Positions 1 to 19,228 of a stretch of 64,000 bases of DNA are shown piece after piece. How positions within the stretch are numbered: the stretch's first letter is position 1; every line of letters begins with the position of its first letter. Origin of the DNA: Henriciella sp. (GTDB lineage Bacteria; Pseudomonadota; Alphaproteobacteria; Caulobacterales; Hyphomonadaceae). The stretch covers positions 513-64,512 of the forward strand of contig NZ_DUBH01000043.1 of NCBI RefSeq assembly GCF_012960415.1, read 5' to 3'. The notes under the pieces were generated by a model. That model had not been told where the DNA came from. It ran no database searches and was given only the letters and a program-made list of their open reading frames with translations. Position numbers and translations under genes: made by a program.

Positions 1-468
1 TTCGGGGCGATCGACGGAATCTTCCACACCGCCGGTGTGGTTTCGGACGAACTCATCCAGTTGAAGGTCGACGCGGACATCGAGCGCGTCTTCGGCCCCA
101 AGATTGGCGGCCTCGAAGCTCTCATCTCTCAGCTCGATACAAGCCAGCTCAAGACCGTGGTTTTCTTCTCATCGGTCGCCGCCCGTTACGGAAATGCAGG
201 CCAGGCCGACTACGCCATGGCAAACGAAATCCTGAACCGCATGGCCTGGTGGCTGAAATCGGCCAATCCGGCCGCCGCGATCACCTCCATAAACTGGGGC
301 CCTTGGGATGGCGGCATGGTGGACGAGGGCCTCCGCGCCAAATTCGCAGAGCTTGGCGTCCCGCTGATCTCCAAGTCCGCCGGGGCGAACGCTTTTGCCG
401 ATGCAGTTCTCGCAGGTGCCGCCTGCCCCGTAGAGCTCGTCGCAGGTGCGGAGATCGCGCATGTCTGA
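1..468 (+). CDS. 3' end of a PfaA-like PKS/PUFA-synthase subunit (ketoreductase domain C-terminus); the 5' end lies upstream of the window
   Basis: Frame 1 is open from nt 1. The translation GAIDGIFHTAGVVSDE...VVFFSSVAARYGNAGQADYAMANE...INWGPWDGGMV matches the catalytic S...Y..AN region of type I PKS KR domains. The TGA at 466-468 overlaps the next gene's ATG (461) by 8 nt. Confidence 0.8.
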   Translation, partial: FGAIDGIFHTAGVVSDELIQLKVDADIERVFGPKIGGLEALISQLDTSQLKTVVFFSSVAARYGNAGQADYAMANEILNRMAWWLKSANPAAAITSINWGPWDGGMVDEGLRAKFAELGVPLISKSAGANAFADAVLAGAACPVELVAGAEIAHV

Positions 469-3400
469 GCCGAAATTCGACCCGATCGCCATTGTCGGGC
501 GCGGCTGCGTCCTCCCCGGCGCGCTTACCCCTGCCGAACTCTGGCAGGCCGTGCTTGAGGAAAGGAGCCTCATCACCGATGCCCCGCCGGGCAAATGGGG
601 CGTCACCGACGCCGAGCAGCAGGCCCTCGGCTACAAAGGCGCCTTCGTCACCGGCTTCGACAAAGTCTTCGACGCCGCCGCCCATGACCTCGGTGACATC
701 GACGCCGCAGATCTCGACCCAGTCTTTCAGTGGCTGCTGCATGCGGGCCGCGAAGCCTGGCGCGAAGCCGGACAGCCCAAGGCTCGAAAAAACCGCATCG
801 GCGTCATCGCTGGCAATCTCGGCTATCCGAGCCGCGCCCTCTCTGACTTTGCCGCAGACATCTGGCTGGACGGCACCTCGGGCATCCACCCACAGAACCG
901 TTTCAACACAGGCGGCCCTGCGCAGCTTCTTGCCCGCTCGCTTGGCGCGGCCGGACCGGCCTTCGCCATAGATGCAGCCTGCGCCTCCTCCCTCTATGCC
1001 ATCAAGCTCGCCTGCGACCGCCTGCAGGATCACAGCCTCGATATCGTCGTCGCGGCAGCCGTAAATGGCGCGGACAATCTCATTCTCCATCAGGGCTTTT
1101 CAGCCCTCAACGCGCTCTCACCGACAGGCCGCTCACGGCCATTCGTGGAGGGTGCAGATGGCCTTGTCCCGGCAGAAGGTGCCGCCGCCATCGTTCTGAA
1201 ACGCCTGTCAGACTGCGACCTCGCAGACCGAGTCTTCGGCGTCATTCGCGGCATCGGCCTTTCCAATGACGGGCGCCGCAAATCCCTTCTCGCGCCAGAC
1301 GGCGAAGGCCAGCGCGAAGCCATGGACGCCGCATGGGCAGGCGCGGGCCTCGACCCGTCACGCGACATCGGGCTCGTCGAAGCCCATGCCACAGGCACAC
1401 GCACGGGCGATGCCGTCGAGCTATCTGCCACCGCCGCCCATTTCCAAGGCGTAGACGGCCTCCCCATCGGGTCGCTCAAAGGCAATCTCGGCCACCTCAT
1501 CACGGCCGCTGGCATGGCGAGCCTCATCAAGCTCATCTTCACCGTCAATGAAGGCATCATCCCCCCGACGCGGCTTGAGGGCGATGCTATCGCGGGCTTT
1601 GGCGGCAGCCCGCTTACCCCCGCCCGGCACGGCCAATGGCCGGACGGCCGCCCACGCATCGCCGCCCTCTCCAATTTCGGCTTTGGCGGCAACAATGCCC
1701 ATCTGATCCTCGCCGCCGATGACGGCCACCGCGCCCGCCGAAAGGCCGCGAAGCCCGATCAGAAGCCGCCCCATATCGCCATCACCGCCACCGGCCTCTC
1801 CCTTGGCCCGGATCGCGGCGTCGCCCGCGTGGTTCAACGCCTGATGCGTCCGCCAAAGGATGCGCGCGGCGCGATGACAGAGACCCATGCCGACCCGAAA
1901 GCCCTACGCGCGCCGCCCTCGGATCTTTCTTCAGCGCAGGGCCAGCAGGTCGCGCTCTGGGACGCCGTTGACGAAGCCCTTGCCCGTTCGTCCCTCCCGG
2001 ATGGCGCGCGCGTCGGCGTCTACACCGGTTTCAGCTGCTCGCCCGAAGCGACCCGCTGGATGCTCCGTGCACGGATTTCAGAGCGTCTGGGACTCAACCC
2101 AACATCGCCAGAAGCTGACGCCGCCCGCAACTCCATCGCCGCGCCGCTGAAAGCTGGCGACGTCCTCGGCGCCATGCCGAATGTGTCTGCCAACCGGCTG
2201 AATGTACGCGGCGACTGGCGCGCGCTCGGCTTTGCGGTGATGGAGGAGGAAGCTTCTGGGCTTCGCGCCACAGAGCTCGCGATCCGCGCCCTTCAGGCGG
2301 GCGAGATTGACGCCGCCATCGTTGCTGCAGCCGACCTGTCCAGCGATGTGGTTCACACCGCCACGAGCAGCGCGCGCACAGGTGACGCCGCCGCCGCCGT
2401 CATCCTGCAGCGCAGCGTCGACGCCCCTTCGGCAACCAAAATCCGAGCGCTCCGCATTCAAGCGGGCCAGGCGCCCAATGCCCTCATCTCCCGCATCTAC
2501 GGCCATGCCCATGCGGCGGGCAGCCTCGTCGAGCTTGGCTTGCAGTCCGAAGCCGCCGCGCGCGGGCTGGAGCTTACCAACACGGGCCTCATCCCGCGCC
2601 TCGACAATTCAGCCACTCGCCCGGCTGTGGCAGGTGCTGCCGTCATACTGAAGACGCGCCCGCAACCCTCGCCAGACCTGCTGCGCCCGCCGCCGCTGCT
2701 CGAAACATACGGCGCCGACAGCCGCGACGCGCTCATCGCCTGTCTCGAAGCCCAAGAACAGGCCAGCGACGGCAGCCACCGCGTCGCTCTGCTCGCCTCC
2801 CGCCCGGAAGAGATGACGGCCCTTCGCCTCGAAGCTGCATCGCGTCTTCGTTCAGGCAGACTTGAAAGCGGCGAAGGCATCCATTTCGGTGAGGGCGCGC
2901 CAAAGGGCGATCTCGCCTTTGTATTTACCGGCGCGGCGGCTGCCTATCCCGGCATGGGGCGCGATCTCTTCTCTGCCTTCCCGTCCCTTGGCAAGCTTGT
3001 CGCCCAGCGTTTCCCGGCGGCTCAATCTGTTGCCGATACGTTGGCCACAGGCCTTGAAAGCGCCTTCAGCCAGCTGCGCGCCACCACGCTTGTCTCGCAG
3101 GCCCAGCATCTGCTCCTGACGAAGAAGCTTGGTCTCAACCCGACCGTCGCGATGGGTCTGTCATCCGGCGAGACCAATTCGCTCATCGCCTTCGGCGCAT
3201 GGGTCGATGCTGACGGGCTCATGGGAACGATTGGCGAAAGCGGCATGTATGATCGCTACCTCGCAGGCGCGTTTGAAACCGCCCGCAAGGCGTGGGGCGA
3301 GAAAGCCCAGATCGACTGGGAAACCTGGCGTCTGCGCAACAGCGAGGCCGCTGTGCGCGATGCAATCAAGCCTGAGCCGCGCTGCGACATTACCATCATC

Positions 3401-6400
3401 TACAGCGCCAGCGATGTCGTCATCTCTGGTGAGGCAGCCGCATGCCAGCGCGTCATAAAGCGGCTCGGCGCGGCGGCGATACGGGTCCCGCATGACCTTA
3501 CCGTGCACACCCCTGCCATGCTGCCCTATGAGAAGATCTGGCATCAGCTTCATTTCCGCAAGACGAAAGCGCCGAAGGGCGTGCGCTTCTACGCCAACGC
3601 CATAAACGGCGCGTACTATGTGTCCGCCGACAGCGCCGCCAACATGCTGACAGGTCAGGCCATCGCGCCAATCGATTTCCCGGCGACTCTCCGCGCGGCG
3701 CATGCCGACGGGGTAAGGACCTTCATCGAAATCGGCCCTCGCGATACGCTCACCGGAGCCATTCAGGAAACGCTTGGGGCCTCTGTCACAGCCCTGCCAG
3801 TAGACCGGTTCGGCACGCCCGCTCTCGACAGTATCGCCGCCCTCACCGCTCGCCTCTTCGCCGAAGGGCACGCCCTCAATGTCGACTGGCTGAAGGTACA
3901 GCTAGGTGAGGCTAGCGCCAACACACTGCCATTGCGGGTGAAAGACAGAAGCGCAGTTACCTTCGATGCGCATGTCCCGCCGCCGCGCCTGCCACAGCTT
4001 CCATCTGGCGCTTCGCACACGGCCCGCCGCCGTCTCTCTCCACCCAAGCGGCCATCCTTCAGTCCCGGTCCGCTCCCGCCAGCAAAACCTGCTCGCACGC
4101 GAACAATTCCACTGCCGCCCGGCACAAGCTGGGTCCCGCCCGTGGTGAAGACAGTTGGGACGACCGTTCTGGAGCGGACTCGAGCGGCAACGGCGACGAT
4201 GCCTGCAGCCGTGCCGACACCACCAACCGCACCCAAACCGAACCCCGCCAGGCGCATCACGCCTGCGTCGGCGGAAGCCCGTAGATCTATCACGCCGCTA
4301 GAGCGCAGGACGCCAACAGGCCCCTCCTTCACCCGGGCTCAGATCGAAGAAGCCGCGGTCGGCAACATCTCGGATGTCTTTGGCGAAGCCTTCGCCGCGC
4401 AGGACAAATTCCGCCGTCAGGTCCGGATGCCGCGCCCGCCCATGCTGCTCTGTGACCGGATTACCGGCATCGACGCAGACGCGCTTGTCCAGGGAAAGGG
4501 CACGATCTGGACCGAAACCGACGTCACTGCAGACCTATGGGCGGTCAGCGACGGCATGCTGCGTCCGGGCCCCTTGATCGAAGCGGGGCAGGCAGACCTT
4601 GCGCTCATCTCATGGATGGGCGCTGATATGCTGAACTGCTCGGACCGCGTCTACCGCCTGCTCGGCTGCGAACTTACCTTCCACGAAGGCGGCCTGCCGC
4701 GCGTTGGAGAGACATTGCGCTTCCAGATCTCGATCAAGGGCCATGCAGAGCTATCCGGCGTGCGCATGTTCTTCTTCGAATATGACTGCTATGCTGACGA
4801 GCGCCTGCTTCTGTCTGTTCGCAATGGGCAGGCAGGCTTCTTCACTGATGAGGAACTCGCCAACTCCAAGGGCGTGCTCTGGGACGCCAGCGAAGGCGCG
4901 CCGACGGCAGACCCGCGCCTCGACAAGACGTCGCCGACAAGCAAGCACAGCTTCAGCGCCGCCGAAGTCGCCGCCTTCCGCGCTGGCGACACCTATCGCT
5001 GTTTCGGCGAAGGGTTTGAGCGCGCGGCCCCGCACACGCGCCCTGCCCGCCTGCCAGCTGGCAAGCTCTCACTGTTCGATGATGTGGCCGAGTTCGATCC
5101 CACCGGCGGCCCTTGGGGTCGCGGCTATCTCAAGGCCCGCCACCGCGTCGCCAAACACGCCTGGTTCTATGATGGCCATTTCCATGAAGACCCGTGCATG
5201 CCCGGCACGCTCATGGCCGAGGCGGCTGTTCAGGCGCTTGAATTCACCGCCGCAGGACTTGGCCTCACCATTGAGCGCGACAGCCATGTCTTCGAACCGG
5301 CACCGGGCGCGTCTGCGACCTTCTACTGCCGGGGTCAGGTGACGCCCGATGAGGACCACGACATCACCTATGAAGTCTTCGTCGATGAAGTGATCGACGG
5401 CGAAGAACCCATGGTCTTCGCCAGCCTCCTTGCGCGCTCTGATGGCCGAAAGGTCTTCTACTGTCCGCGCTTTGGCGTCCGCCTTCGCCGCCAATGGCCA
5501 GACCAGCCAAAAGCCTCCGCACCGCCCCACTATGTGAATACTGATTGCGACGTGCGCGGTGATGAAGCGGCCCTCATGGAATGCGGCTCTGGCGCGCCAA
5601 GCAACGCCTTTGGCAGCATGTATGCGCCCTTCGACACCAAAGGCGCTGTCCCCCGCCTACCGCAACCGCCCTACCACATGGTCAGCCGTGTCCTGTCCGT
5701 TTCTGGCCCTGCTGGCCAGCAGTCGGCAGGCCTGAAAGCTGTTGCCGAATATGATGTCCCACCAGACGCTTGGTATTTCGAGGATGGCGGCACCGGCAAC
5801 ATGCCTTTCAGCGTGCTGACCGAAGTCATTCTGCAACCCTGTGGTTGGCTCGCTTCCTATTCGGGCTTTGCCCTGTCCGGTGAGACGCGCTTCCGCAATC
5901 TCGATGGCAGCGGCAAGCTTCACCGCCAGGTTCGCCCCGGCGATGGCATGGTCCGCACAACGACAACGCTGACCCGATGCTCGCGCGTTGGGCCGATGAC
6001 CATCGTCTTCTTCGCGCTCGAAGCCACGCTCGCTGATGGCACACCCATCATCTCGCTGGAGACGATCTTTGGCTTCTTCACCAAAGCGTCACTCGCCGCG
6101 CAGGCAGGCCTCAAGCCAACCGACACAGATCGCGACTTCGTCAGCGCGCCAGCCGACCCACCGAGCGAGGACGGCACGCGCCTTCAGGCCTCCCGCAACC
6201 GGCTTGCGCTGTTTGATGTCATCGACCGGTTCGAACCAGAAGGCGGTAGCGCCGGTCTTGGCCAGATCCGCGCCCGGCAGGCCGTCGATCCCTATGCCTG
6301 GTATTTCAAGGCGCACTTCTTCTCTGACCCGGTCCAGCCCGGCTCACTCGGCCTCGACATGCTGGTTCAGCTTCTCGCCCGCGCCGCTGACCTCAAAGGT

Positions 6401-7786
6401 CTCGCAGAGCGGTTCGAGCACCCTGTCTGGGAGCCGATTGCAGAAACCAATGAGGTAAACTGGGCCTATCGCGGCCAGGTCATGCCCACGGCGAAACAGG
6501 CGACCCCGATGGTCGAGATTCTTTCGGTCGAAGAGCACGATGACGCGACCATCGTGAAGGGGCGCGGCGTGCTCTGGGTCGATGGGCTGAAAATCTATGA
6601 GATGCGCGAACTAAGCGTCCGGATATGCACCGCCCATACACCGTCAGTGCACCGCCACTGCACCATGTTTTCTGCTGGAAACGAGGGCTGGCTCCAGTCG
6701 CATCGTCCAACGCATACCCTCCCCGCGCTCCCGCTTCTGGCGCAGGCCGGAATGGCTCTGCAGCAGGCGAGAGCGGCAGGCTTCGAAGGCTACCCGATTG
6801 AACTGAAAGCGTTTTCGCCAAAACGCTGGGGCAGTTTGAGTGCTGAGGGCCTCAGCGTAGAGGCCAGGGTAACACCAGACGGCGACGCAAAACTGCGCGG
6901 CCGCGATGCCCTCTGTGGCGACGCCCCCTGGTACGAAATTTCCGCCGGAAAGATTAGCCAGCCCGTTCGGGGGCCAAAGCCGAAACTCGGGCCCGAAAAA
7001 CATGGAAAAAAGCGTGCTGATCCCTATGCATCCGGCGACCTTTTCCACGGGCCCGCCATGCAGCCCGTCATCTCCATGCACCGTGACGCAAAGGGCTTCG
7101 AAGCTATTCTGGACCTTTCCGCCGCCATTCATCCCGGGGACCCGTTCGACCCGGTCATACTGGACGGCCTCGTCCATGGCCCGCCGCACGAAACGCCTGA
7201 AGAATGGTTCGAGGGCGCGGAAAACACTGCCATCTACCCCGTCCGGATCGACCGCCTGATTGTGCTCAGCGCCCTTCCGGAAAACGGCAAAGTCACCGTC
7301 AGGGGTCGTCCGCAATCACGACCGGAAGGCTCTGATGAGCTACCCGTCCTGATCGAGGCCTATCTTGAAGACGGCACGCTCTGGGCGCGGCTGGACCTCA
7401 TCGAGAAAGCGTATCCGAAAGGCAAGCTCGGCGCGCTCAACCCACTGGCAAGAAAGGCTTTTCTGACGGGCGCAAATGACGAGGTGGTCGCGCCGCTCAG
7501 CTGGCAGGGAGGCGAGCGCAGCCTCGTCGCGCCCGCCGACGTGATGGCGTGCGACTGGCTGCCCGGCACTGTCGCCGCCGCCTGGGGGCTGAATGGGCTA
7601 ACGGGCGCAGATCTCATCAAAGGCGTTGCCGTGAAGGAATTCTTCGCCCGCAAATGGGGTATCCATCCGCAAAAGTTGACGCTGGACCCACCTTTCGTCA
7701 TCGGCCCAAACGCCCGCAGCCGTTACGATCTGCGCTTCGATACCGCCGCGCGCGCCTGGTCTGTCGGAGATGATCCCCATGGATAA
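461..7786 (+). CDS. PfaC-like multidomain polyketide/PUFA synthase subunit, KS - CLF - AT - linker - FabA-DH - FabA-DH - PKS-type DH-like region
   Basis: A single 7.3-kb ORF. Motifs in order: KS (DAACASS with Cys codon 980-982, EAHATGT, NFGFGGNNAH); a CLF-like second KS without the Cys (VMEEEASG); AT (AMGLSSGE with Ser codon 3161-3163); a Pro/Arg/Thr-rich linker (~3970-4330); FabA-type DH (GHFHEDPCMPG, His 5177-5179); a second FabA-type DH (AHFFSDPVQPGSLGLD, His 6314-6316); and a PS-DH-like tail (YASGDLFHGPAMQP, LDGLVHG). ATG 461 (MSEPKFDPIAIVG) is preferred over GTG 446. Confidence 0.9.
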   Translation: MSEPKFDPIAIVGRGCVLPGALTPAELWQAVLEERSLITDAPPGKWGVTDAEQQALGYKGAFVTGFDKVFDAAAHDLGDIDAADLDPVFQWLLHAGREAWREAGQPKARKNRIGVIAGNLGYPSRALSDFAADIWLDGTSGIHPQNRFNTGGPAQLLARSLGAAGPAFAIDAACASSLYAIKLACDRLQDHSLDIVVAAAVNGADNLILHQGFSALNALSPTGRSRPFVEGADGLVPAEGAAAIVLKRLSDCDLADRVFGVIRGIGLSNDGRRKSLLAPDGEGQREAMDAAWAGAGLDPSRDIGLVEAHATGTRTGDAVELSATAAHFQGVDGLPIGSLKGNLGHLITAAGMASLIKLIFTVNEGIIPPTRLEGDAIAGFGGSPLTPARHGQWPDGRPRIAALSNFGFGGNNAHLILAADDGHRARRKAAKPDQKPPHIAITATGLSLGPDRGVARVVQRLMRPPKDARGAMTETHADPKALRAPPSDLSSAQGQQVALWDAVDEALARSSLPDGARVGVYTGFSCSPEATRWMLRARISERLGLNPTSPEADAARNSIAAPLKAGDVLGAMPNVSANRLNVRGDWRALGFAVMEEEASGLRATELAIRALQAGEIDAAIVAAADLSSDVVHTATSSARTGDAAAAVILQRSVDAPSATKIRALRIQAGQAPNALISRIYGHAHAAGSLVELGLQSEAAARGLELTNTGLIPRLDNSATRPAVAGAAVILKTRPQPSPDLLRPPPLLETYGADSRDALIACLEAQEQASDGSHRVALLASRPEEMTALRLEAASRLRSGRLESGEGIHFGEGAPKGDLAFVFTGAAAAYPGMGRDLFSAFPSLGKLVAQRFPAAQSVADTLATGLESAFSQLRATTLVSQAQHLLLTKKLGLNPTVAMGLSSGETNSLIAFGAWVDADGLMGTIGESGMYDRYLAGAFETARKAWGEKAQIDWETWRLRNSEAAVRDAIKPEPRCDITIIYSASDVVISGEAAACQRVIKRLGAAAIRVPHDLTVHTPAMLPYEKIWHQLHFRKTKAPKGVRFYANAINGAYYVSADSAANMLTGQAIAPIDFPATLRAAHADGVRTFIEIGPRDTLTGAIQETLGASVTALPVDRFGTPALDSIAALTARLFAEGHALNVDWLKVQLGEASANTLPLRVKDRSAVTFDAHVPPPRLPQLPSGASHTARRRLSPPKRPSFSPGPLPPAKPARTRTIPLPPGTSWVPPVVKTVGTTVLERTRAATATMPAAVPTPPTAPKPNPARRITPASAEARRSITPLERRTPTGPSFTRAQIEEAAVGNISDVFGEAFAAQDKFRRQVRMPRPPMLLCDRITGIDADALVQGKGTIWTETDVTADLWAVSDGMLRPGPLIEAGQADLALISWMGADMLNCSDRVYRLLGCELTFHEGGLPRVGETLRFQISIKGHAELSGVRMFFFEYDCYADERLLLSVRNGQAGFFTDEELANSKGVLWDASEGAPTADPRLDKTSPTSKHSFSAAEVAAFRAGDTYRCFGEGFERAAPHTRPARLPAGKLSLFDDVAEFDPTGGPWGRGYLKARHRVAKHAWFYDGHFHEDPCMPGTLMAEAAVQALEFTAAGLGLTIERDSHVFEPAPGASATFYCRGQVTPDEDHDITYEVFVDEVIDGEEPMVFASLLARSDGRKVFYCPRFGVRLRRQWPDQPKASAPPHYVNTDCDVRGDEAALMECGSGAPSNAFGSMYAPFDTKGAVPRLPQPPYHMVSRVLSVSGPAGQQSAGLKAVAEYDVPPDAWYFEDGGTGNMPFSVLTEVILQPCGWLASYSGFALSGETRFRNLDGSGKLHRQVRPGDGMVRTTTTLTRCSRVGPMTIVFFALEATLADGTPIISLETIFGFFTKASLAAQAGLKPTDTDRDFVSAPADPPSEDGTRLQASRNRLALFDVIDRFEPEGGSAGLGQIRARQAVDPYAWYFKAHFFSDPVQPGSLGLDMLVQLLARAADLKGLAERFEHPVWEPIAETNEVNWAYRGQVMPTAKQATPMVEILSVEEHDDATIVKGRGVLWVDGLKIYEMRELSVRICTAHTPSVHRHCTMFSAGNEGWLQSHRPTHTLPALPLLAQAGMALQQARAAGFEGYPIELKAFSPKRWGSLSAEGLSVEARVTPDGDAKLRGRDALCGDAPWYEISAGKISQPVRGPKPKLGPEKHGKKRADPYASGDLFHGPAMQPVISMHRDAKGFEAILDLSAAIHPGDPFDPVILDGLVHGPPHETPEEWFEGAENTAIYPVRIDRLIVLSALPENGKVTVRGRPQSRPEGSDELPVLIEAYLEDGTLWARLDLIEKAYPKGKLGALNPLARKAFLTGANDEVVAPLSWQGGERSLVAPADVMACDWLPGTVAAAWGLNGLTGADLIKGVAVKEFFARKWGIHPQKLTLDPPFVIGPNARSRYDLRFDTAARAWSVGDDPHG

Positions 7787-8360
7787 TTTTGAGATCATCC
7801 CCGTTACCGACGCCACGCGGCCCTTGGTCCAGCACCTGCGCTACCGGGTCTATTGCGCCGAGAAGCAGTTCGCCATGAAGGGAGCCGACCATGAAAGCCG
7901 ACTGCTGCGTGACGATGCTGACCCGCTGGGCGAGACTTTCGCGCTTTTCGATGGGGCTGACCTTGTCTCCAGCGCGCAGGTCATCCCAGTCCATGCGAGT
8001 GAAGCAACTGAAAGATTTTGGGTTTTCGACCTTGGATCAGTCCTCGCCGAAGGAGAAAGCTGCGTCGTCGTGTCGAAACTGGTCACCGCTCCAGAACGGC
8101 GCGGCTCCAAGACGCTCGGCCCGGTGATGCGCGCTGTCCTCGACTATGTGGCCCGCAACAAGCACCGCTATATCGCCATTCTGGCCGAAGCACAGATGCG
8201 TGAGTTTTATGGATCGATGGGCTTCGATATCCGCAAGGAAGGCATAGAAGCGCCGCCCTTCGGCACTGTTTCGCTTATGGTTTTTGACATGCAGGACGAG
8301 CGTCACACCAGTGGCAGATCACTCGCCGGATGGATGTTCAAATCGATTTTTGCGCGCTGA
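7779..8360 (+). CDS. Small GNAT-fold acyltransferase resembling the FeeM / N-acyl amino acid synthase / LuxI-like acyl-ACP-dependent family
   Basis: 193-196 aa. The pattern LRYRVYCAEKQF...DxxD...ALFDG.DLVSSAQV...VVSKLVTAPERRG...FYGSMGF fits the N-acyl amino acid synthase / autoinducer-synthase-like GNAT layout. GGAGA (7766-7770) lies 8 nt upstream of ATG 7779. The alternative start is ATG 7770. The gene overlaps the PKS stop (7784-7786). Confidence 0.6.
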   Translation: MDNFEIIPVTDATRPLVQHLRYRVYCAEKQFAMKGADHESRLLRDDADPLGETFALFDGADLVSSAQVIPVHASEATERFWVFDLGSVLAEGESCVVVSKLVTAPERRGSKTLGPVMRAVLDYVARNKHRYIAILAEAQMREFYGSMGFDIRKEGIEAPPFGTVSLMVFDMQDERHTSGRSLAGWMFKSIFAR

Positions 8361-8997
8361 ACGCGGCCGTGCAAACCGCATCGGGGCCAGCGTCGATCAC
8401 CGTCAACATTAGCGACAAGCCGCGATCTTTAGTTTCGATTTCGTCCAGACGCCCCCGAATGAATTCCGACGGTATTTCAACGCTCTTCGCGCCGCCGCGA
8501 AGCCCCTCTCCCCGGCATTTCAGAACTGCTTCCTTTGCGGTCCAGAGACGATAGAAAGCGGCCAGCTGTGCCAGTTCCGTGCCCGCGGAAATGACGGCAT
8601 CGCTCTCAGCTGGGGAGGCCGTCATCGAGAGGATCGCGCTCGTCTCGCGCGGTATCAGCCGCTCGATATCGATGCCGATGCGGCTCACTTCAGACAGTGC
8701 CGCTGCCGCGATTGATCCCGACTTCGACCAGCTGATAGCGAGCTCAGGCGCGCCAACAAGCTCCGGGCGGGCGTCGTCATAACTCTGAAGAACAGGCGTT
8801 CCAGGCTGTGGCCGTTGCTGCTGAATAAGCTGCCGCATCAGCCATCTGGCATGCAGAAAGTCGGCAGCGTCGTCGCTACGTCTAAGCTTAGAAGCACGTG
8901 CTTTTTCGGCCTCGTCGGCAGGCTCAAAGCTATGCTGAACATCCCGCCTGTCAGAAATTGCCCAGACCGGGCCAGCAGCTACAGAGCCGCCGCGCAT
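8338..8997 (-). CDS. Sfp-type 4'-phosphopantetheinyl transferase (PfaE-like)
   Basis: Carries the GIDIERL and WTAKEAVLK motifs. The start is either ATG 8997 (2 nt after the sigma gene's stop) or TTG 9003 (4-nt overlap). The 3' end overlaps the convergent GNAT gene by 23 nt. Confidence 0.85.
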   Translation of the reverse strand: MRGGSVAAGPVWAISDRRDVQHSFEPADEAEKARASKLRRSDDAADFLHARWLMRQLIQQQRPQPGTPVLQSYDDARPELVGAPELAISWSKSGSIAAAALSEVSRIGIDIERLIPRETSAILSMTASPAESDAVISAGTELAQLAAFYRLWTAKEAVLKCRGEGLRGGAKSVEIPSEFIRGRLDEIETKDRGLSLMLTVIDAGPDAVCTAAFSAQKSI

Positions 8998-8999
8998 GA

Positions 9000-9611
9000 T
9001 CAAATGGGGTGCTGGGCTGGTCCTGCCAATTCATCGAGCCGATGAAGCAGCGCTGGAAGCCCCTGCCCCTCAGGGCGCTTGACGGCATAGGATGAACGCT
9101 CGCTCGACACGAAACGCCGTTTCACGGTTTCACGCGCGCGGCTGACGCGGCTCTTGATCGTGCCTGCCGAGCAGCCACAGACCTCTCCGGCCTCATCATA
9201 GGTCATGCCTGCAGCGAGGATAAGGATCAGCGCGTCGCGCTGGTCGTCTGGTAGCTGGCTGATCAGCCGCTCCATCCGTGCAAAATCCTTGGCTGTTTCT
9301 TGGTGAGCTTCGGCGACGAGAGCCGCAGCGATCACATCTGGCTCCAGATTGACCGAGCGCCAGGATCGGCGCTTCTGCATGTAGAATTCGTTGCGCAGGA
9401 TTCTGAATAGCCAAGGACGCATCGGCTGGTCCGGCTCAAACATTTCCTGCGAGCTCCACGCCTTCAGGCAGGTATCCTGTACGAGATCGTCTGCGAGCGC
9501 GGCGTCGCGGCACAAACCTCTCGCAAAGGCTCTGAGCTCTGGAATCAGGGCTTCGAGGCGGGCGACGAAGGACGCTTCTATTTTCTCAACCAAACCACCC
9601 AACTCCAACAC
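9000..9611 (-). CDS. ECF sigma factor, EcfG-like (general stress response type)
   Basis: Region 2 reads RAFARGLCRDAALADDLVQDTCLKAW...RPWLFRILRNEF. Region 4 reads DQRDALILILAAGMTYDEAGEVCGCSAGTIKSRVSRARE. A NepR-like gene lies immediately upstream. Confidence 0.85.
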   Translation of the reverse strand: MLELGGLVEKIEASFVARLEALIPELRAFARGLCRDAALADDLVQDTCLKAWSSQEMFEPDQPMRPWLFRILRNEFYMQKRRSWRSVNLEPDVIAAALVAEAHQETAKDFARMERLISQLPDDQRDALILILAAGMTYDEAGEVCGCSAGTIKSRVSRARETVKRRFVSSERSSYAVKRPEGQGLPALLHRLDELAGPAQHPI

Positions 9612-10156: not shown

Positions 10157-11923
10157 ATGATTAATCGACTTACCTTCTTTCTTGTCGCCGCCCTGGCGAT
10201 GGCAGCATCTGCTGCCGCAGAGAAAGTTGATATCGAGTTCGCAGGCGACAGGCCGAACGGTGAATTACGGTCAGTTCTTCAGAATGCCCTCGCCGATGAA
10301 AGCACGCCGCAGACAGCGCTGGAGGCGCGCCGGCAGGGAAGGCGCGCGGCCGAAGCGGTCCGCAGCGCGCTGAACAGCGAAGGCTATTACGACCCCCAGA
10401 TCGACCTCGCTGTGCTGGGCACGGACGCACCAGAGGCCCGGCTGCGGATCGATACGGGCCCTCGCTTCGCGCTTGGCAGGGTAAAGGTCTCATTCGTTGG
10501 CACGAGCCCCACCGAAGCCGATCAGGATCTGATCCGGAACGGCCTACCTGTTCGCGCGGGGCGCCCTGCTATTCCGGCGGATGTGATCGATGCGGAACGC
10601 TGGATCACGAACGAGCTGCGCAATGCCGGCTATCCCTATGCCGAAGTGGACGAACGCCGCGTCATTGGAGACCGCGACGCAGAAACGCTAAGCGTCACCT
10701 ATGAGACCCGCACTGGCCCGCGCGTCGTCTTCGGCGAGACCCGCTTTCCGAACGAGAAGATGAAGACAAAGGCGAGCTATCTCGACCGGCTCATTCCCTA
10801 TGAGGCGGGCGAGGTTTACGACCCTGCCGCGCTTTCCCAGTTCAACACACGGCTTGCCGAAACGCGCATGTTTAAGGTGGCGCGCGCCGACCTCACGAAC
10901 GAGCCGTCCGGTGAAACAGAAGACGGGCAGGAAATCCGCGATGTGGTCGTGACCCTGACCGAGCGGCCTCAGAACTCGATCGGGCTCGGCGGCAAGTACT
11001 CGACCAGCGAAGGCTTTGGTCTCAATGCGGAACTCACCCGCCGCAATCTGACCCGCCGCGGCGATGTGCTGAGCGCCGACCTCACTGTGGCCGAGCTTGA
11101 GCAGTCTTTGGAAGTTATCTGGCGCCGCCCGAATGAGTTCGGCTATGGCCGCGGGCTCGTTCTTTCGGCGGGCGTCAAGAATGAAACGACCGACGCCTAT
11201 GACCGTCAGGCGGTTTTCGCAGGCGTCGGCTTTGAAGTCGTCCGCAGTCCCGAGTTCACCTATTCCTATGGTGTACAGGGCGAAATCGCGAAAGAAGAAG
11301 ACGAGTATGGCGAGCGCGACCTTCAGATCGTCTCCGTCTATGCCGACGCCCGCCTCGACAAGACTGACAGCCTGCTCGACCCGCGCTCAGGCTGGCGGGC
11401 TAACGCACGGGTCGAACCAAGTTATGCCTTTGGCGACGAGGTCAGCCCGTACGTGCGCTCGGTTGGCCAGATTAGCGCCTATGTGCCCTTTGACGAGGAC
11501 AGGAAGTTTGTCCTTGCCGGGCGTTTCAAGGCGGGGGCTGTTGTGGGCGCCGATGTCGAGAATCTGCCCGTCGATACGCGCTTCTATTCTGGTGGCGGCG
11601 GCAGCGTGCGCGGCTATGCCTATCAGGCGATTGGGCCGCGCGCCGATGATGGCACGCCGCTTGGCGGCTCATCCGTCATTGAAGCCTCGATCGAGGGGCG
11701 TTATGCCGTGCGGCCGAACATCGGCGTGGTGGCCTTCCTCGATGCAGGGGCTGTCTCGACCAGCCAGTTCTCCGATTTCAGCGATGCGCGCTATGGCGCC
11801 GGCGTCGGCGTGCGCTACACCACGCCCGCAGGCCCGATCCGCCTTGATTTGGCGACACCGCTGAACCCCACAGATTTTGACGACCCGGTCCAGATCTACA
11901 TCTCGATCGGTCAGGCCTTTTAA
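10157..11923 (+). CDS. tamA: TamA, Omp85-family outer-membrane translocation and assembly module protein
   Basis: Has a signal peptide (MINRLTFFLVAALAMAASAAA), POTRA-like repeats, and a C-terminal Omp85 barrel (RFYSGGGGSVRGY ... IYISIGQAF, ending in Phe). It is followed by tamB with a TAATG overlap. Confidence 0.85.
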   Translation: MINRLTFFLVAALAMAASAAAEKVDIEFAGDRPNGELRSVLQNALADESTPQTALEARRQGRRAAEAVRSALNSEGYYDPQIDLAVLGTDAPEARLRIDTGPRFALGRVKVSFVGTSPTEADQDLIRNGLPVRAGRPAIPADVIDAERWITNELRNAGYPYAEVDERRVIGDRDAETLSVTYETRTGPRVVFGETRFPNEKMKTKASYLDRLIPYEAGEVYDPAALSQFNTRLAETRMFKVARADLTNEPSGETEDGQEIRDVVVTLTERPQNSIGLGGKYSTSEGFGLNAELTRRNLTRRGDVLSADLTVAELEQSLEVIWRRPNEFGYGRGLVLSAGVKNETTDAYDRQAVFAGVGFEVVRSPEFTYSYGVQGEIAKEEDEYGERDLQIVSVYADARLDKTDSLLDPRSGWRANARVEPSYAFGDEVSPYVRSVGQISAYVPFDEDRKFVLAGRFKAGAVVGADVENLPVDTRFYSGGGGSVRGYAYQAIGPRADDGTPLGGSSVIEASIEGRYAVRPNIGVVAFLDAGAVSTSQFSDFSDARYGAGVGVRYTTPAGPIRLDLATPLNPTDFDDPVQIYISIGQAF

Positions 11924-14900
11924 TGAGCACCACTGATCCAGCTCCAAGCCAGCCCGCCCAAAAGCGGAGCCTGACCCGCCGCCTTCTGAAATGGACGGCG
12001 ATTGGGCTCGGCGTGCTGCTGGCGCTGATCATTATCCTGATACTCGCAGCTCGATATGCCGCGCAGTCCGCCTTTGGCCGCGAATTCGTCGAGACCCGGA
12101 TCGAAGCGGCGGACCCGTCCGGTCAGGAGATTGAGGTCGAAGGCCTGTCAGGTGACCTACTTGGCACATTCCGGATCGAGCGGCTTACCGTCGCCGATGA
12201 GGACGGTGTCTGGCTGATCGCGGAAAACCTCCTCGCCGACTGGAAGCCGTTTGACCTGCGCCGGCGGGCGCTGACGATCGAAGCGCTGGAAGCGGACCTC
12301 ATTCATGTCCTGCGCCGCCCTATCCTGCAGCCTTCCGACCGCGAAACTTCTTCGGGCGGCTCCATGCCACTGCGCGCAGGCGAGCTTGGGCGCCTGCGCA
12401 TTGGAGAGCTGCGAACTGATGAAGGCGTCATTCCACGCCCGCTATCGCTGAATATCGAAGCTCAGGGCCGGATTGGCCGCGACGGCGGGCGCACCGAAAT
12501 GGCGGTCGTCCCGCTGGATGGTAATGGCGATGAACTGCTCGCAGACCTCACCTGGTCAGACGATTTCCGGGTTCAGGGCAATCTGGAGCTCGAAGGCCCC
12601 GCCGGCGGCCTGTTTGCGAGCCTTGCCCGCCTGGACCCGGACCAATCGATCTCTGCTACGCTGGACACACAAGGCGCGCTGAATGACTGGCAGGCCGATG
12701 CAGACATCGAAATTGGCGACTCGTCGCTCATCATGCTCGATGCTGAGGCGCGCGAGCAGGTCATCAGCTTTCAGTCAGATATTCAGCCAGCGCTGCACCC
12801 GTTGACGCGAAGGATCGCAGATACGCTTGGCGAAACCCTCTCGATTGAAGGTGACCTGTCGCGCGGCGAAGGGGGCCCGTCGCTTGACGTCACTGCTATC
12901 GCCGAAGGCCTGGAGCTGAGCGCGATCGCCCAGCAGAGCGAAGAGGGCGGCTACCGCGCCGACCTGCGGCTGACAGCGGACAATCCGACCCGCTATACCA
13001 ATGTCGAGAACGTATCTGTCGGCGAGGCCATGCTGGACGGCGTGCTTGTCTATACGGATGGCACGGCGCGCTTTGACGGCGATGTTCGGGCGTCTGGTGT
13101 TGATGTACCATCCTTTGCCGCTGACACTGTATCCGGACCGATGACGGCCATCTATGGCGACGGCCGTGCGAGTGTACGCACCACGCTGACCGCAGCGGGT
13201 GCAAACCTGCCAGGTATGAGCGGACAGATCGCAGGTCGCGCGCCGGTGCTCGTGCTGAATGGCGACTACAATATCGCAGACCGGACCATCGAACTTCGCG
13301 AGACGGTTGTGCGAGGTCGCGCGGGCCGTATCGCCGCCCAGGGCGATATCGCCTTGTCGCCTTCGCTGAGCGCCAATGTCTCTGGCAGCTTCCAGCTTGA
13401 TGGCAGCGCCGCCAGCCTCGCCCGCCCGGTGAACCTTCAAGGTAATTTTGAAGCGAGCCGTGCTGGCGCTGGCGCGACCCGGTTCAATACGCAGATCAAT
13501 GCGAGTGAGCTTGGTGCCCTGCCTGCCCCGTTGAGCGACTGGGCATCGGACGCCGCCTTGCTCAATGTAAACGGCGTGCTGCAGCCAGACAATGCCGTGG
13601 ATCTCAACCAGATTTCGCTGGAAAGCGGGACGTTATCACTCAATGGATCGGGCCGGCTCAGTAGCGAGCAGGCCATATCGGCGTCGCTGCACCTGCAGGC
13701 GGGCGAAGCGAATGTGGCAGGCTATGCGCTTGAGAGCGTGAGCGGGCGCGCTGACGTTTCCGGTACGCTGGACGCGATGGATTTCGTGGTGAACTTCAAT
13801 GCGCCGCAGCTTGCGAGCGAAAGCCTCACCTTCACAGATATCGGCCTTGGCGCGGACGGCACCTATGGCGGCGGCGCGCTGAACGCATCCGTTTCGCTAG
13901 GGGCCGGGACGACGAATGGACCGCTCGACGTTCAGACCGGTGTCGCCCTCAACGGGTCTGACTGGCGAGTTGAGGGGCTTGAGGCGAGCTGGGGTCCGCT
14001 AGCTGCGAACGCGACCGTCAGCGGCTCGGGTGGTAAGTTCGGCGCGATACGCGGCGAAGCGAATGTTCGCGGCGACCTGCCGGAAGGGCTGCCTGCCCGA
14101 CGCGTTGATGCCAGCGCTTTCATCGAAGGCGAGGCGCTGACGATTGATGCAACGCTGGAAGAAGTCGCCGCCGGGCCGACCCGCGCAGACGCTCTCGTCA
14201 TCCGCGCGACAGGTACGCCAGATAATGCCGACTTCATCGTCGAAATGGATGGCAGCACCGAGGTCGACGGCCTTTCCTATCGCACGCTCTTGAATGTCGA
14301 CGGCAATGTCAGCGGGCTGATCAGCGGCGCAATGGAGCTGACCGCGGGCCTCGACGCAAGCCTTGGCGACCTGACATTAGTGACGCAGGAACCGCTTCGC
14401 TACGCCTCGTTCGAAGACGGGATGGAAGTGTCGACAGAATTTGCAGCGCTTGGCGGCTCGCTATCAGCCAGCCTGACCACACGGGGCGACACACAGTTGC
14501 GGGCGTCGGCAGGCGGGCTCGAAGTCGCGCCCCTCCTGGTCCTCCTTGGTCGCCCCGCACTTGATGGCGCACTGGACCTGTCGCTGGCCTTCGATGAAGC
14601 AGCCGAAGGCGGACTGAGCGGTCCCATCGAAGCAGAGATGCGCGGTGTCTCGCGCCCGGGCTCAGACCTTCCACCAGTGAATTTGTTCGTGAGGGGCACG
14701 CTGCAGCCTGAACTCCTCGATCTGGTGCTCCGTGCTCTCGACAATGAAACGCTCGAAGCCCGCGCGGCGATTGAAGTGCCTGTGAACACGTATGAAAGCG
14801 CGCCATTCATACAGCCCGTTTCTGGCGCCAGCATGCCCTTCTCCGCCAATGCCAGCGGCCAGATCGAAGCGATAGCTGCGCTGTTTATCCCGCCGCAAAT

Positions 14901-16125
14901 GGTGCTGCAGGGCGTGGTGAATGCTGACGTGTCAGGCGAGCTGCCATCCCTGAATGAGAGCTTCTCGGGCAGGGTGCAGTTCTCTGAAGGCGTCTTCGAG
15001 CATGGTGACCTCGGCATGGTTCTCAACCAGATATCCGCTGATGCACGCCTCGGCAGCGGCACTGTGAACCTCGAAAGCTTCAGCGCACGCGGGCGATCCG
15101 GCGGCACGCTTGAGGGCAGCGGCACCATGGCCGTTGATGGATCGGGACGCAGCGATGTCCGGATCCGCGCCGATCAGCTGGTCGTCACAGAGCGACGTGA
15201 GGGCTCGGCGACAGTGAGCGGGACACTGTCACTGAACCAGCAGCCAGACCTGTTTGAGATCACAGGCGACCTCACGGTCGATGAAGGCTCTATCAACCTC
15301 GCAAACCTGCCGCAGGGCGGCCCGCCGACGCTGGATGTGACTTTCCGACAGCCGGATGAGGAAGAAGAAGAGGAAGACGTCGAGGAGGCCGCGACCCGTC
15401 TCGATATCAGCCTCAACGCGCCTGGTCGGATCGACATTAGCGGGCGCGGCGTCAATGCGGAGCTTGCCCTCGATGCCGACATTGAGGGCCCGATTGCCAT
15501 CCCGGTCATAACTGGTCAGGCAGAAATCGTGCGCGGCCGGTTTGACCTGATCGGCAAGCGGTTCGAGTTCGGAGAGAGCACCGTGCGGCTTGCGCCAGAC
15601 CTCGGTGAAAGCCGTCTGGCCGTCCGCGCCGAGCATGAGACGCGCGACGACATTACAGCAATCCTGAACGTGGTCGGGACGGTGTCGCGGCCAGAAATTG
15701 AGCTGACCTCGGAACCGGTGCTGCCGGAAGATGAGGTTCTCTCGCGTGTCCTCTTCGGCCGCTCGCCGACGCAGCTGACAGCGCTGGAAACCGCGCGTCT
15801 GGCAGCGGCGCTCGCCCAGCTTTCCGGCGGCGGCGGCTTTGACCTTCTTGGCGGCATTGAGACCGCGCTCGGCCTGGACACATTCGATGTCGGCAGCGGC
15901 GCGAGCGGCGGCGTCGAGGTGACAAGCGGCAAGTACCTTACCGACAATGTCTATCTTGAAGTGCGTTCAGGCGCGACGGGCGCGCCGGGCATCGCCATTG
16001 AGTGGGAGCCGATCGAGAATATCGAGATCGAGGCCGCCACGAATACGGGCGAGGACCTGGGTCAGGAACTCTCGATCCAGTGGACGCGCGACTTCGATGA
16101 TCCCGGAAGCGGTGACGAAGACTAG
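11923..16125 (+). CDS. tamB: TamB, inner-membrane-anchored translocation and assembly module protein (DUF490)
   Basis: 1400 aa with an N-terminal TM anchor (IGLGVLLALIIILILAA), long beta-rich repeats, and a C-terminal TamB-like region (SGKYLTDNVYLEVRSG). It is coupled to tamA. Confidence 0.85.
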   Translation: MSTTDPAPSQPAQKRSLTRRLLKWTAIGLGVLLALIIILILAARYAAQSAFGREFVETRIEAADPSGQEIEVEGLSGDLLGTFRIERLTVADEDGVWLIAENLLADWKPFDLRRRALTIEALEADLIHVLRRPILQPSDRETSSGGSMPLRAGELGRLRIGELRTDEGVIPRPLSLNIEAQGRIGRDGGRTEMAVVPLDGNGDELLADLTWSDDFRVQGNLELEGPAGGLFASLARLDPDQSISATLDTQGALNDWQADADIEIGDSSLIMLDAEAREQVISFQSDIQPALHPLTRRIADTLGETLSIEGDLSRGEGGPSLDVTAIAEGLELSAIAQQSEEGGYRADLRLTADNPTRYTNVENVSVGEAMLDGVLVYTDGTARFDGDVRASGVDVPSFAADTVSGPMTAIYGDGRASVRTTLTAAGANLPGMSGQIAGRAPVLVLNGDYNIADRTIELRETVVRGRAGRIAAQGDIALSPSLSANVSGSFQLDGSAASLARPVNLQGNFEASRAGAGATRFNTQINASELGALPAPLSDWASDAALLNVNGVLQPDNAVDLNQISLESGTLSLNGSGRLSSEQAISASLHLQAGEANVAGYALESVSGRADVSGTLDAMDFVVNFNAPQLASESLTFTDIGLGADGTYGGGALNASVSLGAGTTNGPLDVQTGVALNGSDWRVEGLEASWGPLAANATVSGSGGKFGAIRGEANVRGDLPEGLPARRVDASAFIEGEALTIDATLEEVAAGPTRADALVIRATGTPDNADFIVEMDGSTEVDGLSYRTLLNVDGNVSGLISGAMELTAGLDASLGDLTLVTQEPLRYASFEDGMEVSTEFAALGGSLSASLTTRGDTQLRASAGGLEVAPLLVLLGRPALDGALDLSLAFDEAAEGGLSGPIEAEMRGVSRPGSDLPPVNLFVRGTLQPELLDLVLRALDNETLEARAAIEVPVNTYESAPFIQPVSGASMPFSANASGQIEAIAALFIPPQMVLQGVVNADVSGELPSLNESFSGRVQFSEGVFEHGDLGMVLNQISADARLGSGTVNLESFSARGRSGGTLEGSGTMAVDGSGRSDVRIRADQLVVTERREGSATVSGTLSLNQQPDLFEITGDLTVDEGSINLANLPQGGPPTLDVTFRQPDEEEEEEDVEEAATRLDISLNAPGRIDISGRGVNAELALDADIEGPIAIPVITGQAEIVRGRFDLIGKRFEFGESTVRLAPDLGESRLAVRAEHETRDDITAILNVVGTVSRPEIELTSEPVLPEDEVLSRVLFGRSPTQLTALETARLAAALAQLSGGGGFDLLGGIETALGLDTFDVGSGASGGVEVTSGKYLTDNVYLEVRSGATGAPGIAIEWEPIENIEIEAATNTGEDLGQELSIQWTRDFDDPGSGDED

Positions 16126-17012
16126 AGCTCGCCTTTGAGACGGCGCATCACGCCGGAAAAATCGATATCGCCGAAGCCGTCTTCATCCAGCTTCGCATAG
16201 ATCTGCTGAGCGTGATTGCCGAGCGGCGTATCGGCCCCGACATCATCGCCCGCACCCATGGCAAGCCGCAGATCCTTCAGCATCATGGCGACCGCGAAGC
16301 CCGGCTTGTAGTCGCGGTTCGATGGCGCGGTCGGCACAGGCCCTGGCGCCGGGCAATAGCTGGTCATGGACCAGCACTGCCCGGACGCGGTGGACGAGAT
16401 GTCGTAGAAAGTCTGCGCATCGAGACCGAGCTTTTCAGCAAGGTTGAACGCCTCGCAGGTGCCGATCATGGAGATGCCGAGCAGCATGTTGTTCGCGATC
16501 TTCGCGACCTGTCCGTTGCCCGGATCGCCCGCATGGAAGACATTCTTGCCCATGACGTCGAGGATCGGCTTTGCCTTCTCGAACCCGTGCTTTGGGCCAC
16601 CCACCATGAAGGTCAGCGTGCCTGCCTCGGCAGCGGCAACACCACCCGACACCGGTGCGTCCATATAGGAAAAGCCCGCTTCTGCGGCTTTCCCGGCAGC
16701 ATCGCGCGCCTCTTCGACGGCGATAGTCGAACAGTCAAGGAAAAGCGTGCCCGGCTTTGCGTGTGCCGTCACACCACCCTCACCGAAATAGACCTGATGG
16801 ACATGCTTGCCCGCTGGCAGCATGGACACCACGACGTCGACATCGCTCACCGCCTCGCCGACAGTGGCAGCGGCCTTTGCTCCTGCCGCGACAGCGGCTT
16901 TCACCGCATCTCCGTTAAGATCGAAGGCGTGCACCTCATGTCCCGCCTTGGCGAGGTTTGCGCACATGCCGGAGCCCATATTGCCAAGGCCAATGAATGC
17001 AATCTTCGTCAT
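16122..17012 (-). CDS. mmsB: 3-hydroxyisobutyrate dehydrogenase
   Basis: Rossmann N-terminus MTKIAFIGLGNMGSGMCANL, overall HIBADH-family pattern, and a valine-catabolism operon context. Confidence 0.85.
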   Translation of the reverse strand: MTKIAFIGLGNMGSGMCANLAKAGHEVHAFDLNGDAVKAAVAAGAKAAATVGEAVSDVDVVVSMLPAGKHVHQVYFGEGGVTAHAKPGTLFLDCSTIAVEEARDAAGKAAEAGFSYMDAPVSGGVAAAEAGTLTFMVGGPKHGFEKAKPILDVMGKNVFHAGDPGNGQVAKIANNMLLGISMIGTCEAFNLAEKLGLDAQTFYDISSTASGQCWSMTSYCPAPGPVPTAPSNRDYKPGFAVAMMLKDLRLAMGAGDDVGADTPLGNHAQQIYAKLDEDGFGDIDFSGVMRRLKGEL

Positions 17013-17027
17013 GGTGAGATCTCCTCC

Positions 17028-19192: not shown

Positions 19193-19228
19193 GGACTTAA
19201 CCCTCAAAATCTAGGACTTGGGTCAGAC

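Follow-up and report, generated by a model that had tools for sequence, protein, structure and literature searches.

A putative GNAT-terminated variant of the Pfa1-3 type of secondary-lipid synthase in Henriciella

How is the finished acyl chain released from a polyunsaturated fatty acid (PUFA) synthase-like assembly line whose last subunit carries no terminal acyltransferase domain? The question is raised by one end of a 64,000-nt stretch of Henriciella sp. DNA (contig NZ_DUBH01000043.1, positions 513 to 64,512 of the forward strand; the whole stretch is called the window below), which encodes a megasynthase of 2,441 aa. This region codes for the Pfa3-like subunit of an iterative, PUFA synthase-like secondary-lipid fatty acid synthase/polyketide synthase (FAS/PKS) of the pfa1-pfa2-pfa3 (myxobacterial or Type L-like) lineage, in which the enoyl reductase (ER) comes first. 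In the myxobacterial Pfa3 a 1-acylglycerol-3-phosphate acyltransferase (AGPAT) domain has been proposed as the chain-terminating step (PMC6731297, PMC8436480). The window protein has none, and within its last codons begins the gene of a FeeM-like acyltransferase of the GCN5-related N-acetyltransferase (GNAT) family. We incline to the reading that the cluster is of the pfa1-3 type in a GNAT-terminated form, with N-acyl amino acids or amines as the predicted products of release.

The features are itemized in Table 1. Starting at the 5' end of the window, a frame-1 open reading frame that is already open at position 1 encodes the end of a ketoreductase (KR). Its stop codon lies at 466-468, and not at about 462, and overlaps the next ATG (461) by 8 nt (ATGTCTGA). 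The KR fragment aligns to positions 2122-2268 of the 2582 in the PfaA model TIGR02813, and therefore terminates at the point where a canonical PfaA continues into a dehydratase (DH) domain, DH'. The megasynthase follows on the + strand in the open reading frame 446-7786, with the ATG at 461 as the likely start. Its full-length orthologues (67-93% identity) are all from Henriciella, and over the tail, comprising the last DH and a C-terminal subdomain, it is 85-91% identical to the proteins of Henriciella algicola, H. barbarensis and H. marina.

The chain begins with a ketosynthase (KS) in which the motifs are complete, with the active-site cysteine in DAACASS and the histidines in EAHATGT and KGNLGH. 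In the KS-like chain length factor (CLF) that comes next, the cysteine position is taken by glutamate (MEEEASG), hence a KS and a Cys-less CLF lie on one polypeptide. The best model of acyltransferase (AT) type for the third domain is that of the PfaB family, TIGR02816 (3.9e-18, below its cutoff). Beyond a low-complexity linker there are two FabA-type units, each composed of a pseudo-hotdog and a FabA hotdog, with cores at residues 1531-1666 and about 1912-2057. Both have intact histidine motifs, HFHEDPCMPG (1573) and HFFSDPVQPG (1952), and the FabA equivalog models match residues 1913-2057. The protein ends after a PKS-type DH module in what is termed the DH4 position, and no match to the AGPAT family PF01553 was found in the 2,441 aa. 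In these respects the original prediction, made from the letters of the window, is upheld: the upstream gene does end directly after its KR; KS, Cys-less CLF, AT with GLSSG, Pro/Arg-rich linker, two FabA-type DHs and a PKS-type DH do share one protein; and the AGPAT is absent. Domain calling and the clusters of relatives also agree with the view that the layout is neither that of marine pfaA-D nor that of textbook pfa1-3.

The FeeM-like GNAT gene was not part of that prediction, and its product is the likely substitute for the AGPAT. The protein has 196 aa if translated from the ATG at 7770, or 193 aa from that at 7779, so that its start overlaps the stop codon of the megasynthase by 17 nt or 8 nt respectively (the latter in ATGGATAA). 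It scores 48.4 bits on the Pfam FeeM family PF21926 (cutoff 27), over model positions 3-149 of 158. There is a weak match to OlsB, and general GNAT models such as Acetyltransf_9 match as well. FeeM-type N-acyl amino acid synthases, like the OlsB-type N-acyltransferases, use acyl-acyl carrier protein (acyl-ACP) as the donor and make amide-linked lipids. A product outside the classical PUFA lipids, as was originally suggested, is plausible.

The slot of the AGPAT is defined by comparison with relatives. A small alignment of the tail served as the profile of an exhaustive HMMER search. It matched 883 cluster representatives (with E-values below 1e-30 for 329), and most of the matches cover nearly the whole of the profile of about 400 aa. 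Architectures were inspected for the best 150 or so of this search, together with matches obtained earlier, with domains mapped by phmmer. In this set the tail module always stands directly after the FabA-type pair of a KS-CLF-(AT)-DH-DH protein. What comes after it varies. In 98 of the tail-bearing proteins the tail continues into an AGPAT-type extension of a further 300-400 aa, which has the motif ANHQVxIES and matches PF01553; in three it continues into a GNAT, and about 65 proteins end there. The three with a fused GNAT are P0002, P0082 (2,627 aa) and P0125. As a separate gene that overlaps the megasynthase gene and lies directly downstream of the C-terminal subdomain, the GNAT occurs in H. 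marina (locus L004) and in loci L008 and L009; the L009 megasynthase has 48% identity to that of the window.

The association was also found starting from the other gene. Seven loci, with identities of 36-91%, came out of a metagenome scan for which the GNAT alignment alone was the seed, and in all six that include upstream DNA the tail subdomain lies directly upstream of the GNAT. Six of the seven have a convergent phosphopantetheinyl transferase (PPTase) gene. Since the identity of these linked loci goes down to 36-41%, the connection between GNAT and tail is older than the genus. In the window the PPTase gene is likewise convergent to the GNAT gene, the 3' ends overlapping by 23 nt, and the same position is occupied in L004, L006, L007, L009 and L010-L016.

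The AGPAT too may be detached. In L007, a relative of the AGPAT lineage, the tail is the last part of the megasynthase, and the PF01553 acyltransferase has a gene of its own at the cluster's 5' end (L007 1-875, + strand). Fused and separate forms are thus seen for AGPAT and GNAT both, and the terminal acyltransferase is evidently a mobile module in the Pfa3-like family. L007 also has a pair of RND efflux genes just downstream of its PPTase gene. In a rough neighbour-joining tree of the KS-CLF regions (calculated without bootstrap) the GNAT-linked and Hyphomonadaceae proteins form one clade, which is nested among the AGPAT-type proteins. Proteins of Hyphomonas that lack the tail fall inside this clade, a placement which suggests that their loss of the tail was secondary. 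About 100 relatives of about 2,030 aa resemble the tail-less Hyphomonas protein.

The chemistry that we envisage is as follows. The chain would be built on two ACPs by the KS/CLF, KR, FabA-type DH/isomerases, PKS-type DH and ER, the PKS-type DH probably being the only one of its kind in this lineage because Pfa2 has lost its own (DH1). Iterative synthesis would lead to a long, probably cis-unsaturated acyl-ACP. In most relatives the finished chain would then be passed to the C-terminal AGPAT, giving phosphatidic acid. In the window lineage the AGPAT would be replaced by the translationally coupled FeeM-family GNAT. Accepting the chain from its thioester on the ACP, perhaps through the PfaB-like AT within the megasynthase, this enzyme would acylate the amino group of an amino acid or amine. 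The product would probably be an undescribed N-acylated lipid, of the N-acyl amino acid type, rather than an ordinary omega-3 membrane lipid.

A number of observations weigh against this scheme. The best solved relative of the GNAT family profile is an acetyl-CoA-dependent enzyme, plant serotonin N-acetyltransferase (2e-6), and the solved FeeM structure 2G0B is matched at an E-value of only 0.2; a search of the PDB with the single GNAT sequence found no match. The fused GNAT of P0082, the one fused example scanned against Pfam, scores 24.7 bits on FeeM and is thus below the cutoff of 27. No gene for supplying or modifying an acceptor lies nearby; what follows downstream is a gene for a stress sigma factor, then those of TamAB and of valine catabolism. 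The upstream genes of the cluster are known from relatives, the H. marina orthologue being about 88% identical over the whole protein, and the equivalence of the tail with the DH4 of Minicystis rosea rests on position and family rather than on a direct alignment. PfaB has been reported as a terminal acyltransferase, so the internal PfaB-like AT could release the chain (PMC12895367). Lastly, relatives in Hyphomonas possess the same set of ER, KS-MAT-ACP (MAT, malonyl-CoA:ACP acyltransferase), KR and KS-CLF-DH-DH without tail or GNAT, so that synthases of this kind evidently have some other route of release.

The last two of these observations lead to the best of the alternatives, in which the output is an ordinary fatty acid or PUFA, released by the PfaB-like AT or by hydrolysis and taken into phospholipid by housekeeping acyltransferases. 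The GNAT would then be an accessory, such as an acetyltransferase acting on a protein or small molecule, as its closest solved relative might lead one to expect, and the AT does have its GLSSG motif. We consider this unlikely, if not negligibly so. Against it stand the place of the GNAT, exactly in the position of the AGPAT and fused there in three relatives, its linkage to the tail in all six of the independent loci that include upstream DNA, the overlapping start and stop codons, and a FeeM match above the Pfam threshold. A very improbable alternative is that the GNAT initiates the chain, decarboxylating malonyl and priming the ACP with acetyl. GNAT domains do initiate chains in some PKS loading modules (CurA-type), and the matches to general GNAT models fit such a role; against this, the GNAT is C-terminal, following the last domain at the point where relatives have the AGPAT that ends the chain, the AGPAT-type relatives need no such initiator, those in Hyphomonas lack it too, and its best family match is FeeM, a family of acyl-ACP-dependent N-acyl amino acid synthases.

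Searched as a single sequence, the last 391 aa of the megasynthase gave no match in Pfam, NCBIfam or the sequences of the PDB. A profile of the tail family made from 22 sequences matches PKS DH structures, with E-values from 1e-10 for CurH to 1e-5 among AlnB, GphF, PpsC and CurK. A first AlphaFold run with an alignment of four sequences was unusable (pLDDT 46); repeated with 22 diverse sequences it gave a model with a pLDDT of 86.7 and a pTM of 0.85. By Foldseek the first 280 or so residues of this model superpose on the DHs of AlnB, CurH, GphF and CurJ (E about 1e-14, TM 0.66-0.80 relative to the target). Structure prediction, which the original prediction had proposed for this end of the protein, therefore gives a PKS-type double-hotdog DH followed by a conserved subdomain. 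The terminal 180 aa or so had been put down as unrecognised. This does not hold for the first 60 or so, which are the last hotdog strands of the DH; it does hold for residues 2320-2441 or thereabouts, which match no family. Current Pfam models miss most of the DH4-type domain, and some members give faint matches to PKS_DH_N or PS-DH.

The tail had at one stage the appearance of a rare domain. A word-indexed homologue search retrieved three proteins with the single sequence and again three with the 22-sequence profile, and a full-length query retrieved about 25 tail-bearing proteins that were absent from the word-indexed search with the tail. Set beside the 883 representatives of the exhaustive search, the rarity is an artefact of the index. 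Word-indexed searching seems to under-sample domains that are buried at the ends of very long proteins.

The motifs of the DH are H2081-R-P-T-H-T-L-P-A-L-P, LFHGP (2194-2198) and L-D2235-G-L-V-H2239. His2081 is kept in 172 of 173 relatives, and Pro2083 and Asp2235 in all 173. Position 2239 (DxxxH) is His in 159 and Gln in the remaining 14, and the residues of the FHGP motif, equivalent to YGP, are kept in 153-171 of the 173. The original prediction had taken the absence of the glycine of HxxxGxxxxP as a sign that the domain may be non-catalytic. Across the whole tail family, however, the position of the glycine is occupied by Y, W, H or F, the consensus being D-H-x-P-T-[YWHF]-T-x-P-A-L-P. An aromatic residue is therefore the family norm, and H-RPT-H-TLPALP is the normal motif with no sign of decay. 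In M. rosea Pfa3 the order is KS2-CLF-AT2-DH2-DH3-DH4-AGPAT, where DH4 is described as PKS-like, and its mutation from His to Ala abolishes the effect of DH4 on the product spectrum (PMC6731297). The order that the original prediction had given for Pfa3, KS-CLF-AT-DH-DH-AGPAT, had omitted this domain. The near-invariance of His2081 and Asp2235 and the published mutant give no support to the idea of a non-catalytic DH; going by these residues, the DH4-type domain is probably catalytic. The tail is best described as a module of DH4 plus extension, resident in this Pfa3 lineage, with an intact His/Asp dyad.

That the module is resident rather than acquired from PfaA follows from three loci. In L006, L007 and L008 Pfa2 still ends in KR-DH1, with a canonical motif in the DH1 of L006 (H-RIE-G-AAVL-P), and Pfa3 carries the tail module as well. 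As DH1 and the tail coexist there, the tail is not a relocated DH' of PfaA. With the Pfa3 position of these loci the window tail gives E-values of 1e-58 to 1e-41, whereas with the Pfa2 DH1 they are at least 4e-4 for the single sequence and about 1e-13 for the profile; a shared fold would account for similarity to DH1 at this level. The derived features of Hyphomonadaceae are that DH1 has been lost and that the KR has been split off into its own gene. The explanation given first was that the PfaC-like gene had received the DH' of PfaA at its end, where it decayed to a non-catalytic form, followed by a lineage-specific orphan tail. It took its support from a KR gene that ends without a DH, a missing HxxxG glycine and a tail that by itself matches nothing in Pfam, and it retains almost no credibility beside a module that hundreds of Pfa3-like proteins have kept, that coexists with a DH1 to which it is only remotely similar, has near-invariant His, Asp, FHGP and DxxxH with an aromatic residue as the rule at the glycine position, is followed by about 120 aa conserved throughout the family, and has a counterpart published as active (PMC6731297).

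These last 120 aa (residues 2321-2441 or so, termed tailC) fold in the model in the order two short helices, hairpin, two further short helices, one long helix, then four strands, with pLDDT values of 63-89, and were modelled as one unit with the DH at the pTM given above. They accompany the DH in nearly all members of the family, whether an AGPAT, a GNAT or nothing follows. Conserved motifs are PKGxLG, DWLPGT and A-x-K-E-H/F-x-A-R, together with a near-invariant H2402-P2403; H2402 is found in 170 and Trp2366 in 162 of the 173 relatives. None of 80 members scanned individually matched a Pfam family in tailC, and the family profile gave no match among PDB sequences. The motif KEFFARKWG.HP and the order of helices and strands, compared with the DH-PPTase of enediyne PKSE, brought up the idea of a half-domain of an Sfp-type PPTase. 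At the level of sequence this candidate is rejected, with an hhalign probability of 0.5% and no match to ACPS or AASDHPPT_N in 80 members. Since tailC always lies between the DH and the terminal acyltransferase, we suggest that it probably positions or docks that enzyme, or the ACP. As a wider and more tentative proposal, for which we would claim less than even confidence, a clade that includes Henriciella and uncultured marine or soil relatives may have exchanged the AGPAT for a dedicated GNAT that takes the finished long unsaturated chain directly off the megasynthase ACP and joins it in amide linkage to an amino acid or amine, giving a new class of N-acyl, possibly polyunsaturated, amino-acid lipids, with the subdomain of about 120 aa as the adaptor to the terminal acyltransferase.

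An exact-sequence look-up gave no entry for the window protein, and the genes upstream of the KR were therefore read in the relatives with 85-91% tail identity, mainly in H. marina and also in H. algicola. In H. marina the cluster consists of six genes in about 16 kb, in the order PfaD-family ER, KS-MAT-ACP-ACP, KR, megasynthase, GNAT and convergent PPTase, and beyond the PPTase lie an EcfG-type sigma factor and NepR, and then TamA and TamB. The ER scores 534 bits on the PfaD model (cutoff 449). The KS-MAT-ACP-ACP protein has 1,302 aa and scores 997 bits on the PfaA model, the stand-alone KR (469 aa) maps to PfaA positions 1911-2267, and the orthologue of the window megasynthase has 2,435 aa. 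A count of the ACPs and a search upstream for an ER had been recommended with the original prediction; H. marina has two ACPs, and its ER is of the PfaD type. The stop codon between ACP2 and the KR is kept in three Henriciella species, so the split of the gene is real, and the arrangement of KS-MAT-ACP with a KR-only gene is also seen in Hyphomonas. No PKS-type DH (DH1) was seen in the Pfa2-side genes of the Henriciella relatives.

Table 1. Position of the cluster features in the window, and the basis on which each was assigned
Feature	Residues of the 2,441-aa protein	Nucleotides	Strand	Basis
3' end of stand-alone KR gene, no DH'		1..468	+	Pfam KR PF08659 5.8e-24
Pfa3-like megasynthase subunit, KS/CLF/AT/linker/DH(FabA)/DH(FabA)/DH(PKS-type 'DH4')/C-terminal subdomain		461..7786	+	domain calling, sequence reading
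KS	7-370	479..1570	+	PF00109 5e-59, PF02801 2e-30
CLF, KS-like	~450-750	1808..2710	+	weak ketoacyl-synt match, 3.8e-14 on isolated segment
PfaB-like AT, GLSSG motif	820-1106	2918..3778	+	PF00698 1.2e-9
Pro/Arg/Thr-rich low-complexity linker	~1160-1290	3938..4330	+	read from sequence; no family match
Two FabA-type dehydratase/isomerase units		4331..6625	+	PF07977 1.2e-36 and 1e-38, one per segment
PKS-type double-hotdog dehydratase, 'DH4' position	~2056-2320	6626..7420	+	profile against PDB, AlphaFold2, Foldseek
C-terminal subdomain, tailC	~2321-2441	7421..7783	+	conserved across family; mixed alpha/beta
FeeM-like GNAT N-acyltransferase, proposed chain-release enzyme		7770 or 7779..8360	+	PF21926 1.2e-12
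Sfp-type 4'-phosphopantetheinyl transferase (PfaE equivalent)		8338..9003	-	PF01648 4.9e-14; AcpT, HetI models

Adjoining the PPTase gene of the cluster there is a gene for an extracytoplasmic function (ECF) sigma factor at 9000-9611 on the minus strand, with matches to Sigma70_r2/r4 and PhyR_sigma2. In L004 a NepR gene of 41 aa (19157-19282) lies beside the sigma factor, the two constituting an alphaproteobacterial general-stress-response pair. From 10157 to 16125 on the + strand follow TamA (Omp85/POTRA, 588 aa) and TamB (1,400 aa), which are syntenic in all the Henriciella loci; in L009, too, TamB lies close to the cluster. The interval 16122-21731 holds an operon resembling those of valine or branched-chain catabolism, on the minus strand and with a divergent LysR regulator, whose genes encode a 3-hydroxyisobutyrate dehydrogenase-like protein, an ECH_2 enoyl-CoA hydratase, an acyl-CoA dehydrogenase and an aldehyde dehydrogenase. 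At about 24 kb the G+C content falls from about 0.61-0.65 to about 0.54-0.57, a lower level that persists through the rest of the window. At this boundary there is an AbiEii-type toxin gene (24479-25420, minus strand), together with an upstream partner of 197 aa without family assignment (25417-26010, minus strand), and a multicopper oxidase gene (27061-28914) comes after the pair. An acquired island may have its edge in the region of about 24000-29000. In an Rfam scan of the whole window (1-64000) no family reached its gathering score.

The systems to which the cluster can be compared have few known products. Those of secondary-lipid synthases comprise PUFAs, heterocyst glycolipids, phenolic lipids and the hybrids zeamine, fabclavine, megapolipeptin and chitinimine (PMC13291983), and none in a 2026 survey is of the N-acyl amino acid kind. 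No work in the library searched joins PUFA synthases to FeeM-type enzymes or N-acyl amino acids, and none there treats pfa clusters of Henriciella or Hyphomonas.

A relative with a different ending is the cluster of Hyphomonas neptunium ATCC 15444 (L005, CP000158 1861324-1887404), which has the same order of ER, KS-MAT-ACP, stand-alone KR and KS-CLF-DH-DH. Megasynthases of this Hyphomonas type are 46-50% identical over the first 84% of the protein; that of L005 has 2,026 aa and ends after the second FabA-type DH; the locus has no PKS-type DH, subdomain, GNAT or adjacent PPTase.

With the myxobacterial Pfa1-3 of the M. rosea AA/DTA type the cluster shares the ER in first place, KS-CLF-AT followed by two FabA-like DHs and a PKS-like DH, an Sfp-type PPTase and an acyltransferase in the terminal slot. 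It differs from the myxobacterial Pfa3 in having a separate FeeM-like GNAT instead of the AGPAT. The myxobacterial Pfa2 (KS-AT-ACPn-KR-DH1) corresponds in Henriciella to two genes, KS-MAT-ACP2 and KR, with two ACPs and no DH1, and the PPTase gene, unlike that of the myxobacteria, lies inside the cluster. The PKS-like DH4 with its conserved, unannotated subdomain is widespread and not a peculiarity of Minicystis, which corrects the common picture of the domains of Pfa3-type proteins.

The marine gammaproteobacterial pfaABCDE has the same enzyme classes, namely KS, MAT, tandem ACP, KR, KS-CLF, two FabA-type DHs, PfaD ER and PPTase. In Henriciella, however, the gene order is different, the AT is fused into the PfaC-like protein, the KR is separate and without DH', there are two ACPs rather than four to six, and the PKS-type DH with its subdomain and the GNAT are additional. 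Among the cluster types of Shulse & Allen (PMC3098273), compared by the text of the paper, Type L begins 5' with pfaD and has a fused pfaBC homologue that terminates in an acyltransferase, and the AT-less relatives with tail and AGPAT look like this type. [quoted passage not shown] None of the types described in those sections ends in a GNAT, and the Hyphomonadaceae are outside the survey.

With FeeM the window GNAT shares the GNAT family PF21926 in Pfam, and to OlsB it has a weak match, but the known members of these enzyme groups draw upon type II FAS or dedicated small ACPs and not upon a PUFA megasynthase. In the zeamine, fabclavine, megapolipeptin and chitinimine systems the chain is joined to a non-lipid head group by an amide or otherwise (PMC13291983). 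There the coupling employs condensation by nonribosomal peptide synthetase (NRPS) and PKS modules together with AMT and TR domains, whereas in the window one small GNAT is the sole candidate coupler. If the GNAT-terminated reading is true, a compact cluster of six genes would give rise to a new class of bacterial lipid. The way in which chains leave PUFA synthase-like systems is still debated, and a natural exchange of AGPAT for GNAT, fused or coupled, offers a comparative handle on it. Set against all these systems, the domain order is largely ordinary for the ER-first lineage, and it is the substitution of GNAT for AGPAT and the conserved subdomain that are the noteworthy parts.

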